A stretch of 64,000 nt of DNA. It comes from Eledone cirrhosa (lineage: Eukaryota). Both the position numbers and the translations under genes were made by a program. The stretch covers positions 171,306,001 through 171,370,000 of the forward strand of contig OZ024741.1 of assembly GCA_964016885.1 (NCBI GenBank), read 5' to 3'. A model generated the notes under the pieces. That model was not told the origin of the DNA. It did not search any database and saw only the letters and a list, made by a program, of their open reading frames with translations. Within the stretch, counting starts at the first letter, position 1, and every line of letters begins with the position of its first letter. This document shows, piece by piece, positions 12,148 through 61,773 of this stretch.

Positions 12148-12680
12148 AAGTAAGTAACATGTAAAATGTTGCTTCGTTTATTATCAATTCTCTGCTATAT
12201 ATATTTCGGTGACAGCTATTATTGGCTGTGACCTCTTCACGCAGTACGAATTAATGTGGAAAAGACAGGTAAACATGTTGTTGAAATGTGTTCCACTCTG
12301 TTAATTCATCGATATGTCCAGCTCCTAGGTGTGTTGTTAATCCTCTGAGGAACTGGATATGAGTCCATTCCTCGGAGGACTAACAGCAACACACCCAGGA
12401 GCTGGACATATCGATGAATTAACAGAGTGGAACACATTTCAACAACATGTTTACCTGTCTTTTCCACATTAATTCGTACTGCCTGAAGAGGTCACAGCCA
12501 ATAATAGCTGTCACCGAAATATATATAGCAGAGAAATTATAATAAACGAAGCAAAATTTTAAATGTTTGACTTACTTACTTTACATTACTCCGGAGTAAA
12601 CAAGCCAACCTGTGTACTTCGTGGAGTTCTTCAATCTGCATACTGAGGTGTCGGTAAACAATCAACATATACTAAAATAT
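12148..12680. mobile_element. Family C inverted (hairpin) element
   Basis: Arm 12148-12350 is the reverse complement of ~12370-12582; the right arm has an extra ~95-bp tail; degenerate hammerhead (GTGAAGA) on the left arm at 12192-12244. Confidence 0.85.
12479..12531 (+). ncRNA. Type I hammerhead ribozyme, family C
   Basis: ctgc CTGAAGA ggtcacagc..gctgtcacc GAAA tatata TA gcag. Confidence 0.9.
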
Positions 12681-12733
12681 ATATATATATATACAATATT
12701 AATAAATGGAAACTATATTTATAAAACCATATT

Positions 12734-12798
12734 TATTTCATTATATATATTTCAAGGATACCAAGTTAAATCATGGTATGCCTTCATCAGACAAAATA
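12734..12798 (-). ncRNA. Type I hammerhead ribozyme, family A
   Basis: Minus strand: tattttgt CTGATGA aggcatacca..tggtatcctt GAAA tatata TA atgaaata. Confidence 0.87.
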
Positions 12799-15075
12799 CA
12801 ATATATAACAGTTTTACAAATAGATATTGACGTACCCTTTTAAAAATTGACCGTTGTTTTTGGAGGCCATCAGGATAGTGGTTTGTTTACTTTAGTAAGG
12901 CATAGTGTTAAGAGTAAGTAAAAAGATAGAGAGAGAGAGAGAGAAACGTGGAGAAAAGAAAGGGAAAGATAGATAAAGAAAAAGAAAAAAGCAGAAAGAA
13001 AAGAGAACAGAGGAAAAATAACGGGGAGATATCAAAACATCAGACAGAGAAAGAACTCAAGAGAGAGATATGCAGAGATAGAGAGAGGGGGGAGAGAACG
13101 AAAACCTTAAGTTATGTCATATTAAGTTGAGTTAACAATTGAGATGAAATGAATAAATAAAATTAGAAATATTAATATTCATGAATGGAATATAGATATA
13201 TAATATGAGAAATTACACATTGTTTAATTATGATTAGATATTTAGTTTAAAAATTGAGATCAATATATTAAAAATTGGAATTTAAACATTATAAAATATA
13301 TATATTGCTATAGAGATTATCTATCGTATATCACATATACATAGGCAAAGGTACATAAATATATACTCACTCACTCAGAAAATACACATTATATCTACTC
13401 CCGCACATAATGTATACATACAAAGCATAAGTGATTTTTTATTTATTGCTATACACTCCTTGTGTTATTAATTTAAAAATGTTAGTATATATATATAAAT
13501 ATATAGGATTAACTTTTCTATATATATATATGCATAAATATATATATACATACATGCATTTATATATTTATATACATACATATATATAAAGATATGTATA
13601 TATATATATATATATATATATATATATATATATATATATATATATATATATATATATATATATATATATATACATATTTTTACGTATACACACACACACA
13701 ATGGTCAAAGTTCGCTGCCTTCCGGTATATGCAATTTGTGTGCGCCTATACCACGCCTCCCAAGTCACAAAAACAGACCAATCTCCAGTTTTTTCGAGTT
13801 GGCAATAGATTTTTCGAACAGACCCTTCTACCTAAGGTCTGAACGCATCCTTTGTTATCGCGCGTGAAGAACGATGCGTTATAGATATTTTTTTTTTTGT
13901 TCCTCTCACCATATTGCTGTTGCAGTTTCGGTGGTCTTATTCGCGAACTGTCACAAATCCGGTACTTCGTTAAATCCGCGAAGACTAGGCTTGTTTAGAG
14001 GCGGCCTTTACTTGCCTCAACATAGCTACGTCACTGGATCGTGAGAGTTTTCTTGAAAGCTACAGATGTCATCCATTGATCCATCTCCCCTAGTAGTTTT
14101 CCGCTGTTGGTCCAGGGTTGCTTATTCGTCCGAGATTTGGTCGCTTTTATCGCAATTAACATTCATATCTAGCAGCCGTATCGCAATCCACTACTCGTTC
14201 TCTAACAGAACAGCTCTGCCAAGAAATATCGAAATTTGATGAGATTAATATATTCAGTGACAGTCAGTTTCGCCTCTTGTCTCTTCAGGCATACAACTAT
14301 AGTTTTATGTATGTGTATGTATGTGTGTGGCAATGAGTATGTGTGAGCATGTGTCTGTATGTGTGAATAAGTCTGTATGTAAGTATGAGTATTTCAGCGT
14401 GTATTAGAGTATGTATGCGTGTGTATGCGTGTGTTTGAGTATGCAGAGTGTGTATGCGTGTGTTTCCATGTGTTTGCGTGTGTTGGTGTGTTTGTGAGTG
14501 TGTCTGTGCGCGAATGCATGTGAGAAATTGAGAATGTATGTGAGAGTGTGTGGGAGTGTATGCGTGTTTGTGTATGAGTGTGTATGAGTATGTGTGTATG
14601 TGTGTATGTGCGTGTGTGCATATGCCTGTATGTGTATATGCGTGTGTATGCGTATGTGTATGTGTGTAAACTAGAAATTCCTCTGAAGAATATGGTAAAT
14701 GATAGAAGGAAGCTAATGTATTGGTGGCGGGGACTGGGAGGTTTTATGTCCAACATTGTGGGCTGGAAATTACAGGGTGGTTGTCAACATTTAAGAGAGA
14801 ATGTATGTGTCTGTGAAACATACACATATACACCAGGTCTGAATACAAAGGAACCAAACTCCCATTGTCACCGCTTCCGTCTCTCCAGCTCTCCCCATCT
14901 CTCACGACTTTGAGCAAATGCGGGTTCACGCGCTGGCTGCCCCGCTGCCTCATTGACCTGGCTACCCCGTGACCCCGGAGAACAGAATAGAGAGAGAAGG
15001 TGTTTGTCAAGATTTAAGAGAGTATGTTGTAGTGGGTAGTCTATTATTGATGCTTAGACAATTGTTGACGTTGCT

Positions 15076-15390
15076 GGTGGATTGACAGTATCGGTAGAGC
15101 GTCAGACATCATGCAATGCGGCATAGAGTTATGGCCCTTTACGTTCTGGGTTCAAATCCCGCCGAAGTTAACTTTGCCTTTCATCCTAACGGGGTCGAAA
15201 AAACAAAGCCCCAGCAATGCACTGGAGTAATTGCTGGCCTTATACCAAAAGTAGAAACAATTATTCAAATATTGCTGGCCTTATACCAAAAGTAGAAACA
15301 ATTATTCAAATATTGCTGGCCTTATACCAAAAGTAGAAACAATTATTCAAATATTGCTGGCCTTATACCAAAAGTAGAAACAATTATTCA
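15076..15390 (+). mobile_element. SINE family 1 with its 41-bp tail repeated four times
   Basis: GTTCAAATCCC B box and CTTTGCCTTTCATCC core; TTGCTGGCCTTATACC starts at 15231, 15272, 15313 and 15354. Confidence 0.88.
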
Positions 15391-15985
15391 AGTAGCTAAG
15401 TGATAAGGCGCAAATTAATTAAGCTTATGGATAAACATACGATTATGTATAGAAACAAATAAAGGAATGTGAAAATAAAAATACAGGTAAAAATAAATAA
15501 TTTGAAAATGAACATACAGTAAAAATTGTAGAGCTTCATAATGAGATAATCTAGTTGTTAATTAGTAAACAAGTAGTTCTGTAGCTACTTATGTAGTGGT
15601 ATTAACGAGGTTTGAGGATGAGGGCGAGATTTTATGATAACTCTAGTGACAGTGTGAGTTGTAGGATGGAATGGGGCTTGCATATGTGAATGACGGATGT
15701 GGTGAGAGGGTACAAGTGCTTACATGAGTAATGAAATGTGATAATATTTATATATACTCTCTTATATATATATATATATATATATATATATATATATATA
15801 TATATATATATATATATATATATATATATATATATATATATATATATATATATATATATATATATATATATATATATATATATATATCACTGATAAGGGA
15901 CTCATTTTATAACATGTTATCCATGTGCAACCATGCAGTATTCTTCTCCCCATTTTTCATATATATATATATATATATATATATA

Positions 15986-16147
15986 GGCATACGTCAAGAC
16001 GGGCGGTCTGGAAAGTGAAAGTAATTTTTGACACTGTGAATTTTTTTTTTTTTTTTACAACAGGTCTCAATAGTGTAATTTATGATACACACGCAATTGT
16101 ATGGATTTCTTAATATATATATATGTGTGCCCGTCTTGACGTATGCC
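15986..16147 (+). mobile_element. MITE-like element with 19-bp TIRs in (TA)n
   Basis: GGCATACGTCAAGACGGGC ... GCCCGTCTTGACGTATGCC. Confidence 0.75.
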
Positions 16148-59834: not shown

Positions 59835-60265
59835 GTGCATGTCTGACATGCCTGGTCTAACCAGTTTCAAAATGAATCTATCCGGATTTACACACACACA
59901 CACACACACACACACACACACACACACACACACACACACACACACACACACACACACACACACACACACACACACACACACACACACACACACACACACA
60001 CACATATATGATTGTTTTTATTATTAGCACAAGACCAGCATTTACCAGCGCATTACTGGTACTTTATTTTATTGACCCCCTAACGATGAAAGGCAAACCT
60101 AGCATCGGCGAGATTTGAATTGAGTGTGTGGCCTTCCACACAGTTTCCGTCCAGCAAATTTCTATGATAAGGTATTGGTCAATCTGAGACTACACTGAAA
60201 GACACTTATTCAGAGTGTCACTGAGTGAGACTGAATCACGAAACTCGATGATGCAAAGCAATGTA

Positions 60266-60421
60266 CCGTATTTCCCGGCACCTAAAACGCTTCGTCCTTG
60301 AGGACGCACCCCAATTTTGAAACCAAAAATTTGAAAAAATATGATAAAAATGCAACTTTCGGTAGATTTTTTAGGCTTATTTTAGGAAAAGAAGTAGCGT
60401 CTTCGACTCCGGGAAATATGG
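60266..60421. mobile_element. Tc1/pogo-type MITE
   Basis: TA|CCGTATTTCCCGG ... CCGGGAAATATGG|TA. Confidence 0.8.
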
Positions 60422-61365
60422 TATGTAGAATTGTGGTCCAATAAACAGCACACAATAAAACAGAACAACTATTGTGAAAGGATCTATCAATAATGAAATA
60501 AAATAAAAATGCCCTCACAACATATAGAGGGTGTCCCAAAAAATTGTACACATACTTCAAATGCATTCTAATAAATATTGCCTGTAATCAAAAGGTGTAT
60601 ACATCTTTGATGGACAACACACAAACCATTTTGTTTGTTTATCCTAGCGTCCCCTTTATTTACGTGTCCCAACGACTTTTTTTAGCCGTTGCTCGCACCA
60701 ACCTGAGGTATATGGTCTTTAAAGCGATGAAATGCCTATGACGGTTGGAAGACCACTGATGAAGGACAAACTTTTTCATATGTAACCCATTTGCAACGCC
60801 GCAGCTCCATTATTATCATATTTACATATATATATATATATATATATATATATATGATTTTTGTTGACCGTTGGTCAGTGAGTGATAAACATTTGCCAAT
60901 TCGCCGCCTTATAAATACACACACACACACACACACACACACACACACACACACACACACACACACACACACACACACACACACACACACACACACACAC
61001 ACACTCACACACACACACACACACACTCACACACACACACACACACACACTCACACACACACACACACACACACACACTCATACACACACACACACACAC
61101 ACACACACACACACAAATATCTTCTACTTCTTCTTCGCCCACTTATTCCTGAGAGGGCGTGGGGACAGAGTCCTCAATTACACCTTTCACAAATATATAT
61201 ATATATATATATATATAGATTTTGAGTTTATGTTGGTTGTATACCAACACCTCAGTATGCAGGCTGGAGCACTCGACGAAGTGCGCAGGTTGGTTTGGTT
61301 ACTCCGGAGTAGTGTAAAATAAAGTTAAATAAAAGTCAAATGATTAAAATTTAGCTTCGTTTATT

Positions 61366-61420
61366 ACTGCTATATATATTTCAGTGACAGCCATCTTTGG
61401 CTGTGACCTCTTCAGGCAGT
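61366..61420 (-). ncRNA. Type I hammerhead ribozyme, family C
   Basis: Reverse complement of the 61597 motif, within inverted element 61218-61701. Confidence 0.9.
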
Positions 61421-61596
61421 TTGAATATTTGCTAGCATGTGCATGTCTGACATGCCTGGTCTAACCAGTTTCAAAATTTATATGACTCCAGTTCCCCAGT
61501 GAATTAACAACCCAGCAAGGAACTGGGCATATCAGAGTATTGACAATATCATACACCTAAACAACATATGTACTTGTCTATACCATACTAATTCAA

Positions 61597-61651
61597 ACTG
61601 CCTGAAGAGGTCACAGCCAAAGATGGCTGTCACTGAAATATATATAGCAGT
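61597..61651 (+). ncRNA. Type I hammerhead ribozyme, family C
   Basis: actgc CTGAAGA ggtcacagcc aaagat ggctgtcact GAAA tatata TA gcagt. Confidence 0.9.
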
Positions 61652-61773
61652 AATAAACGAAGCTAAATTTTAATCATTTGACTTTTATTTAACTTTATTT
61701 TATATATATATATATATATATATAAATAAAAGATCAGAGACCATATTCACTTGATTCAGGTTTATTTAAAACT

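Follow-up and report, generated by a model that had tools for sequence, protein, structure and literature searches.

Asymmetric head-to-head hairpins related to Penelope-like elements in TA arrays of Eledone cirrhosa

What gives rise to an inverted repeat whose arms end at two different but fixed positions, one with a tail and one without? The question is raised by insertions in a 64-kb stretch of the Eledone cirrhosa genome (assembly GCA_964016885.1, contig OZ024741.1, positions 171,306,001 to 171,370,000). We call this whole stretch the window, and all hairpin counts below are based on this single window. The hairpins resemble inverted pseudo-long terminal repeats (pLTRs) of Penelope-like elements (PLEs). 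In each of the 16 that are arranged head-to-head, one arm abuts (TA)n directly, at a fixed short site (S), and the other runs through a tail to a fixed long site (L). We lean towards explaining them by two priming events per insertion, one at S and one at L, with the inner ends joined afterwards.

Fixed ends in families A and C

A first-pass annotation had noticed that the short arm stops at about the same site in three copies of family C. The site is indeed shared: the tail-less arms end at 12148, 49693-49695 and 61700-61702, that is, in one alignment column within about 2 nt. The chance of three C ends falling within 2 nt among 150 positions is 0.0009. The 14-nt word ACA(T/C)TACTCCGGAG, reported at this site, has three exact matches (12583 and 49980 on the plus strand, 61302 on the minus strand), and 0.32 would be expected with up to 2 mismatches allowed. 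The tail of the long C arms, estimated earlier at about 95 bp, measures 92-94 nt, and its far ends are fixed as well.

The same holds for family A. Its two annotated tail-less ends lie at 2863-2866 and 63618, and two further ends (about 12696 and 50587) bring the number at this one site to four; five ends lie at the far end of an 84-88-nt tail, one of them internally deleted. The head-to-head layout, which the annotation had also described, is set independently by hammerhead cores. The annotation's families B, F, I and M came without positions, and the same letters below are our own. The features of A and C are as follows (letters of all other families were assigned in this analysis).

12148-12357, minus strand: C1, S arm
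12362-12677, plus strand: C1, L arm, with hammerhead core at 12483, predicted cut at 12528 and tail at 12584-12676
12588-12627, plus strand: C1, predicted bulged stem of the tail
49694-49911, minus strand: C2, S arm
49923-50074, plus strand: C2, L arm, preceded by a re-copied stretch of 8 nt and starting at the predicted cut of the ribozyme, with stem 49985-50024
61222-61426, minus strand: C3, L arm, with hammerhead at 61415, stem 61271-61310 and tail 61222-61314
61425-61477, plus strand: C3, central insert of 53 nt, identical to 59821-59873 (part of the B2 tail)
61478-61701, plus strand: C3, S arm, with hammerhead at 61602
2866-3026, minus strand: A1, S arm, with hammerhead at 2964
3027-3102, plus strand: A1, L arm, with an internal deletion in the tail
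50587-50771, minus strand: A5, S arm, with hammerhead core at 50684
50774-50812, plus strand: A5, L arm, only the last 40 nt or so of the tail (33/37 identical to the A3 tail), not overlapping the S arm
63434-63550, minus strand: A6, L arm; stem 63491-63510
63572-63618, plus strand: A6, S arm
12696-12850, minus strand: A2, solo copy with an S end
43420-43608, minus strand: A3, solo copy with an L end; stem 43483-43502
50128-50345, minus strand: A4, solo copy with an L end; stem 50187-50207
20888-21041 (plus) and 21847-22000 (minus): C-related pair, tail-to-tail, both with S ends

The annotation had further listed words common to the A and C tails, and this part of it stands only partly. TACTCC occurs in 7 of 7 tails, and CGAGTGCT and exact CAACA in 5 of 7 each; GTAT is present only in C2, C3 and A3 (3 of 7). 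The tails without CGAGTGCT are those of C1, which carries GGAGTTCT, and A1, with its deletion; A6 has CAAACA in place of CAACA. The overall likeness of A to C tails is weak, as local alignment beats shuffles (p<0.02) in 4 of 9 pairs and not in the other 5, and TACTCC by itself is not enriched in the window (22 versus 20.3 expected). In consensus folds of both tails TACTC pairs with GAGTG, so the two shared words would be the arms of one predicted stem.

The annotation took the fixed end for a defined nick or priming site. The data support this. Priming would most likely occur at this site of the element RNA; a sequence-specific site in the target, which is plain (TA)n, is less likely. Possible instead is a nick that a DNA intermediate receives at S. 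As a whole, the earlier idea is largely right and largely already known.

The one-short, one-long rule

A scan of the window for local inverted repeats returned 22 non-simple loci and one weak palindrome of 66 nt. Fourteen of the 22 are asymmetric head-to-head hairpins, to which family mapping added A5 and D2, visible in this way only because their arms barely overlap. Excluded from the census were eight inverted pairs (1337-1425, 3509/3938, 15987/16750, 20890/21997, 25681/25925, 27977/28864, 37059/37649 and 58628/60119), namely two resembling miniature inverted-repeat transposable elements (MITEs), one short interspersed nuclear element (SINE), one old pair (69-75%), three unclassified and the C-related tail-to-tail pair. 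None of the 16 head-to-head hairpins has two S or two L ends. Symmetric hairpins would be easier, not harder, to detect in this census.

In 12 of the 16 hairpins a second copy shows that the tail derives from the element; those of G2, K, L and M are single copies. Solo copies use both ends (six S and five L by hand tally), so that mixed pairing by chance would have a probability of 0.5^16, or of 0.5^12 = 2.4e-4 for the 12/12 verified hairpins. The S site of the solo copies A2, F (twice) and G1 is the S site of hairpins, and outer ends are fixed across unrelated loci. Orientation follows from a hammerhead or coding sequence in 10 hairpins and from the position of the tail only in B, G, I, L and M. 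The tailed end adjoins TA in 13 hairpins and CT or AC arrays in 3.

A probable 17th hairpin of this kind lies at 3229-4039, as a single copy with a hammerhead at 3327 (minus strand). Its right arm ends in about 95 nt that contain the 3' half of the stem motif described below.

Tails measure 84-129 nt in A, B, C, D and I, 54-60 nt in E, K and L, and 28-44 nt in F, G and H. In the first group a predicted stem begins at most 16 nt from S, with 4 bp closing on TC/GA, a 2-nt bulge on the 3' side and an inner helix. It occurs in 5 of 5 long-tail families versus 0 of 6 short-tail families (Fisher P 0.002), and across the five, 4 of 6 pair positions differ on both sides, though the descriptor itself demands pairing. 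The background rate is 17% for a sequence-free version of the stem and 1.6% for the specific one. By eye, B and I have a second such stem just after L. Two other roles for the tail were tried, also by eye, and rejected: as conserved protein-coding sequence (C-tail substitutions do not follow codon position) and as a splice acceptor (the motif fits A only).

The first-pass annotation named inverted pLTRs with a tail as a known Penelope trait. A Penelope-like identity is supported by the one-sided tails and partial tandems, together with hammerhead cores and a GIY-YIG fragment of Neptune type. A core scan found 16 hammerhead cores in the window versus 0.57 by chance (200 shuffles), and a full descriptor 14 complete type I hammerheads versus 0.24 (100 shuffles). 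Families A, C, C', E, H and K contain them, as do elements at 3327 and 61827. Family D has a degenerate version, and in B, F, G, I, L and M the descriptor scan of the window found none that is canonical. In sequence the motifs show a long helix II and a short palindromic helix III, with a U3-A8 variant in family K. Among the 150 of 221 Rfam matches listed there was no hammerhead; these matches were microRNA-like and other, all below gathering scores. A hammerhead-like core with a type III layout was seen at 11394-11433 (plus strand) and in three further tandem or inverted copies within B1. It is closed by a 7-bp helix III, and helices I and II are rudimentary, which is unusual for animal pLTRs; its fold is no better than shuffles (z 0.73).

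One coding remnant was found:

19541-20389, minus strand: decayed end of a Penelope-like open reading frame (ORF), with the C-terminal region of the reverse transcriptase (RT), a CX4CX2C linker and a GIY-YIG endonuclease (Neptune-type layout)

Part of it (19589-20386) gives an RT/GIY-YIG protein match at E 3.6e-54. The protein closest to the endonuclease fragment is from Octopus bimaculoides (47% identity); with this fragment a HMMER search returned 238 matches at E<=0.001, and near and longer word-index protein searches returned none. Pfam found no endonuclease in 9 ORFs of the window, only a weak RVT_1 match to a fragment of a long interspersed nuclear element (LINE). In the full-length relatives P0014 and P0037 the RT lies upstream of the endonuclease. 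A CX2-5CxxC linker before a C-terminal endonuclease defines Neptune/Nematis (PMC8557442), and the fragment at 19541-20389 has it; a Naiad-type N-terminal endonuclease is not seen, as the RT C-terminal region precedes the endonuclease in this sole coding fragment. The hairpins themselves are non-coding. A weak endonuclease C-terminus stands upstream of the family D pLTR (E 0.004; best reversed control 0.15), and a similar candidate upstream of family G (about 850-950) was dropped when the profile gave no support. Hammerhead cores and the endonuclease fragment support identifying the hairpins as PLEs. Their pLTRs are arranged both directly, in partial tandems, and inverted, as in endonuclease-bearing (EN+) PLEs.

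Scans of bacterial and archaeal genome contigs for independent loci gave 0/20 and 1/241 candidates. The one candidate, L001 (11-2310), is a Neptune-like eukaryotic retroelement ORF on a 2.7-kb contig of a metagenome-assembled bacterial genome. It is probably host contamination, and the contig stops 373 nt after the ORF, so it holds no information on a tail.

The remaining families comprise the following features.

10281-11185, minus strand: B1, L side, 1.6 units of a tandem of about 550 nt; terminal stem 10366-10389
11186-12101, plus strand: B1, S side, 1.7 units
59651-59888: B2 hairpin, S arm 59651-59705 (minus), L arm 59706-59888 (plus), stem 59771-59794; its centre is a perfect 18-bp palindrome
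16833-17960, minus strand: D1, 3' fragment with endonuclease C-terminus 17844-17957 (weak match), AC-rich stretch, pLTR and 94-nt tail; stem 16871-16916
49516-49686: D2 hairpin, S arm 49516-49583 (minus), L arm 49584-49686 (plus), the latter tail plus 6 nt
18030-18570, plus strand: E1, partial tandem with an L end
42577-43375: E2 hairpin, L arm 42577-43058 (minus), S arm 43064-43375 (plus), hammerheads at 42877 and 43129, 54-nt tail
21054-21810, plus strand: F, partial tandem (unit about 646 nt) with an S end, no hairpin
46460-46653 (S end) and 60625-60822 (L end): further F copies
28979-29371: G2 hairpin, L arm on the left (41-nt tail, single copy), S arm on the right
370-540, minus strand: G1, same S end as G2
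29424-30281: H hairpin, S side 29424-29981 (minus), L arm 30005-30281 (plus), hammerheads at 29596 and 30077, 28-nt tail
33139-33650: I1 hairpin, S arm 33139-33205 (minus), L arm 33206-33650 (plus), 129-nt tail; stem 33538-33573
57304-57890, minus strand: I2, partial tandem; it stops immediately before the stem, 17 nt 3' of the S site used in I1
43660-44013: K hairpin, L arm on the left (60-nt tail, single copy), S arm on the right, U3-A8 hammerhead variants at 43829 and 43908
22130-22410: hairpin of family L, S arm on the left, tailed arm on the right (57 nt, single copy)
33831-34752: M hairpin, arms 33831-33971 and 34607-34752, 635-nt centre, putative tail extension

Units of the non-coding partial tandems are about 550 nt long in B, 376-430 in E, about 646 in F, about 443 in H and about 490 in I. 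Insertions of the hairpin families sit in dinucleotide arrays. Several families are piled up within shared TA arrays (B1-C1-A2 at 12102-12850, E2-A3-K at 43375-43660, D2-C2-A4-A5 at 49515-50812), which points to repeated targeting.

Two proposed priming events and the alternatives

In the reading that we prefer, the pLTR sequence of a PLE would be inserted into (TA)n after the element's enzyme nicks both target strands. Reverse transcription would be primed twice, just before the predicted bulged RNA stem (S) and after the tail (L), and the two copies would then be joined at their inner ends. The two arms would thus stem from two priming events; the stem may position the enzyme, pairing of 2-7 nt with a TA primer may help at S, and host end-joining may close the centre. 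A Neptune-type protein would act in trans on these non-coding units. More tentatively, and with doubt on our part, long-tailed PLEs may have in common a conserved loading stem in their RNA, built of 4 bp closing on UC/GA, a 2-nt 3' bulge and an inner helix, where a bound enzyme dimer would have to prime one strand 5' of the stem and the other beyond its 3' side. The inverted one-tailed pLTR would then be the footprint of an obligatory asymmetric twin priming.

The arms are 92-100% identical within a pair and often overlap by 44-790 nt. Identity is higher within than between hairpins for C, E, I1 and A and not for G and B2, a weak comparison given short alignments. Of the six C arms, four begin inside a single 9-nt interval, about 205-220 nt ahead of S. 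The C2 S arm runs through the ribozyme, while the L arm of the same hairpin starts at the predicted cut. Centres take several forms: small loops, palindromes, stretches that were copied again (C2, A6), 2 nt of overlap (B1) and, in C3, an insert of 53 nt. The C3 insert is an exact copy of the B2 tail 1.6 kb away, either a local templated insertion or a template jump between RNAs. The ribozyme cut was ruled out as the fixed end, as S lies 49-215 nt downstream of it (49-55 nt in A and C).

At S, the arm end and (TA)n have at least 2 nt in common (range 2-7 nt) in 18 of 19 junctions, versus 23% at random positions; 21 junctions were examined, and those of A2 and A5 were dropped as mis-anchored. 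Homology alone does not pick S, nor does S lie at the best TA run; all three C copies use an overlap of 2 nt and bypass TATATATA 55 nt upstream.

The alternative that survives best, possible though in our judgement rather unlikely, is that an L-primed cDNA folds back (or self-primes on an antisense template) and copies itself, that the endonuclease nicks the intermediate at the AT-rich S and so removes one tail, and that later central deletions un-nest the arms. One tail per hairpin then follows by construction, S is AT-rich like an endonuclease site, and both endonuclease resolution of an intermediate (PMC8557442) and self-priming (PMC3846280) have been proposed in print. Moreover, five of the 16 hairpins are level within about 10 nt, with 4-6-nt loops or palindromes (18 bp in B2) as fold-back gives. 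On the other side, the S arm reaches further 5' in 8 of 16 (by at least 59 nt; the L arm in 2, with 5 level and 1 undecided), and each of these eight would need a later deletion. A5 and D2 both have a tailed arm that is almost tail only, and their arm overlap is 0 and 6 nt; these two and the longer S arms suggest that neither arm was copied directly from its partner. The S arms of C2 and C3 extend to the common 5' start, and the L arm alone is shortened. Solo copies that end at S are left unexplained, and tail boundaries are RT start sites in vitro (PMC11167929). The stem, the long tails, the TA overlap at S and the non-nested arms favour two separate priming events over fold-back.

An improbable explanation is that the host duplicated a solo tailed insertion later, when a strand folded back at the 5' junction and re-entered the TA array by microhomology, with no second reverse transcription. 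The TA overlap at S fits it, and the C-related tail-to-tail pair, in an apparent larger inverted duplication with a shared microsatellite variant, indicates that such events occur here. Yet microhomology should choose the best TA run, and C skips its 8-nt run three times; the arms would have to be nested, and solo S ends are again unexplained. Assembly or amplification chimeras are very improbable: palindromes beside TA arrays are hard to assemble, yet the arms are diverged, their ends recur at the same base across separate loci and families, and those of A5 and D2 do not overlap. MITEs or foldback DNA transposons targeting TA, the least probable source, would match long inverted repeats flanked by TA, and true MITE-like units occur in the window (15987-16750, 25681-25925), yet every hairpin is asymmetric at its ends where such elements have symmetric terminal inverted repeats, centres are variable, and solo forms, tandem forms and hammerheads are present.

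Besides the level centres, several observations weigh against two priming events and a loading stem. Central deletions after insertion could un-nest arms, and the excess of longer S over longer L arms (8 to 2) has P = 0.11. The start of C2 at the ribozyme cut is one case only. The descriptor search found no bulged stem in E, F, G, H, K, L and M (7 of 12 families); the descriptor was arrived at post hoc, is not enriched window-wide (48 versus 46), and describes the minimum-energy fold in some copies only. When A/C and B/I are merged as kin, the sequence-free test gives 3/10 (P = 0.23) and the specific version 4e-4. No hairpin family except D, with its weak match, is physically joined to coding sequence. 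In the cited part of PMC11167929, no homology was seen between RNA start and target. Lastly, the C-related pair at 20888-22000 is an exception to the rule, arranged tail-to-tail with both ends at S; it appears to be part of a larger inverted duplication.

The surrounding region, 20391-23110, is probably this duplication, with a TA array at its centre. On either side of the F insertion the C-related arms and a microsatellite variant (20571, 22677) form mirror images, and the right arm contains later inserts.

Neighbouring repeats and published systems

The window has 35% GC and abundant TA, AC and CT arrays; LINE fragments are present, and no tRNA genes were found in it. Other repeats were noted along its length.

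1112-2865, minus strand: unclassified element that includes a palindrome of 89 nt (1337-1425) and, at about 1270-1300, a degenerate stretch resembling a hammerhead
13700-14800, minus strand: AC-rich element with a degenerate C-like hammerhead at 14253-14291
15987-16750 (two copies of about 160 nt in opposite orientation) and 25681-25925: MITE-like units in TA whose terminal inverted repeats are short
37058-37650: inverted pair of about 225 nt with TA arrays at its centre and no hammerhead; a diverged copy lies at 38212-38325
4770-5300, 15075-15228, 22430-22612, 25256-25328, 36306-36572, 58548-58719 and 60014-60124, both orientations: dispersed SINE-like family, not TA-targeted
26374-27278, 30362-32850, 38950-39612 and 44069-44800: decayed LINE fragments, of which 26377-26853 gives the weak RVT_1 match
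51834-56800: long array of 42-nt tandem repeats whose minus strand has open frames that are Thr/Ala-rich and mucin-like

EN+ PLEs are described with an inverted, 5'-truncated pLTR and a one-sided tail of 30-40 bp (PMC8557442, PMC3846280). Head-to-head inverted pLTRs, partial tandems, a tail at one end, some junction palindromes and microsatellite targets are common to those elements and ours. In contrast to the published tails, those seen here are 84-129 nt long in five families and 28-60 nt in six; the published length is typical of these elements and no strict criterion. The hairpins of the window are also non-coding and dense. Octopus Naiad entries listed in the supplement of PMC8557442 prefer (TA)n, and a motif search of that supplement found none of the window's tails.

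The closest experimental system is the Poseidon element of Anolis carolinensis (PAc), whose protein nicks and extends both strands of AT-rich DNA in vitro and begins reverse transcription at two sites inside the RNA, which delimit the tail (PMC11167929). Alike are the AT-rich target and the two fixed, tail-bounding ends downstream of the hammerhead, neither of which is the ribozyme cut. Counted by hand on the printed RNA, the first start site is followed after 3-10 nt by a stem that has a bulge on its 3' side; Figures S1B and S2C of PMC11167929 may already show a stem beside the start site. The cited part of that study leaves the inverted arms unexplained, and the window differs from it in the TA overlap at S, a Neptune-type linker (a different clade layout) and longer tails.

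Minimal hammerheads of metazoan PLEs have a type I core, a long helix II, a short palindromic helix III and a U3-A8 variant (PMC4209133). The motifs of the window, known by sequence, resemble them in core build, in the U3-A8 variant of family K and in opposite-strand pairs 100-700 bp apart; unlike them, B, F, G, I, L and M lack a canonical core and D is degenerate. Animal non-LTR retrozymes (bioRxiv 10.64898/2026.07.22.740005) are likewise non-coding tandem units related to pLTRs, and differ from the present arms, which have 1-2 units, are inverted and have defined S and L ends. E and H, at 1.1-1.4 units, might fit retrozyme-like tandems with a type I hammerhead; B, F and I are tandem without a canonical core.

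In LINE-1 twin priming a second primer starts inside the RNA, which yields an inverted segment with junction deletions, duplications or inserts. A5 and D2 resemble such products. The internal priming site of LINE-1 is variable and driven by homology; the site here is fixed and the arms often overlap.

A literature search, mostly outside subscription papers, returned no report of tails of about 100 nt, of a conserved bulged tail stem or of twin priming for PLEs. Inverted ends with a one-sided tail and two start sites in vitro are known; the additions from this one window are the strict S/L rule, the non-nested arms, the long tails and the candidate loading stem. The origin of the inverted ends of PLEs is stated as open in the cited parts of PMC8557442 and PMC11167929. 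With the one-short, one-long rule, with arms that are not nested and with a start site marked by a candidate RNA element, this question becomes testable in the existing in vitro system. Hairpins and solo copies together span about 14.9 kb, or 23% of the window with boundaries as set in this analysis, which suggests that a large share of the short repeats in such genomes may be Penelope footprints. Annotation pipelines could have filed these as SINE, MITE or unknown.

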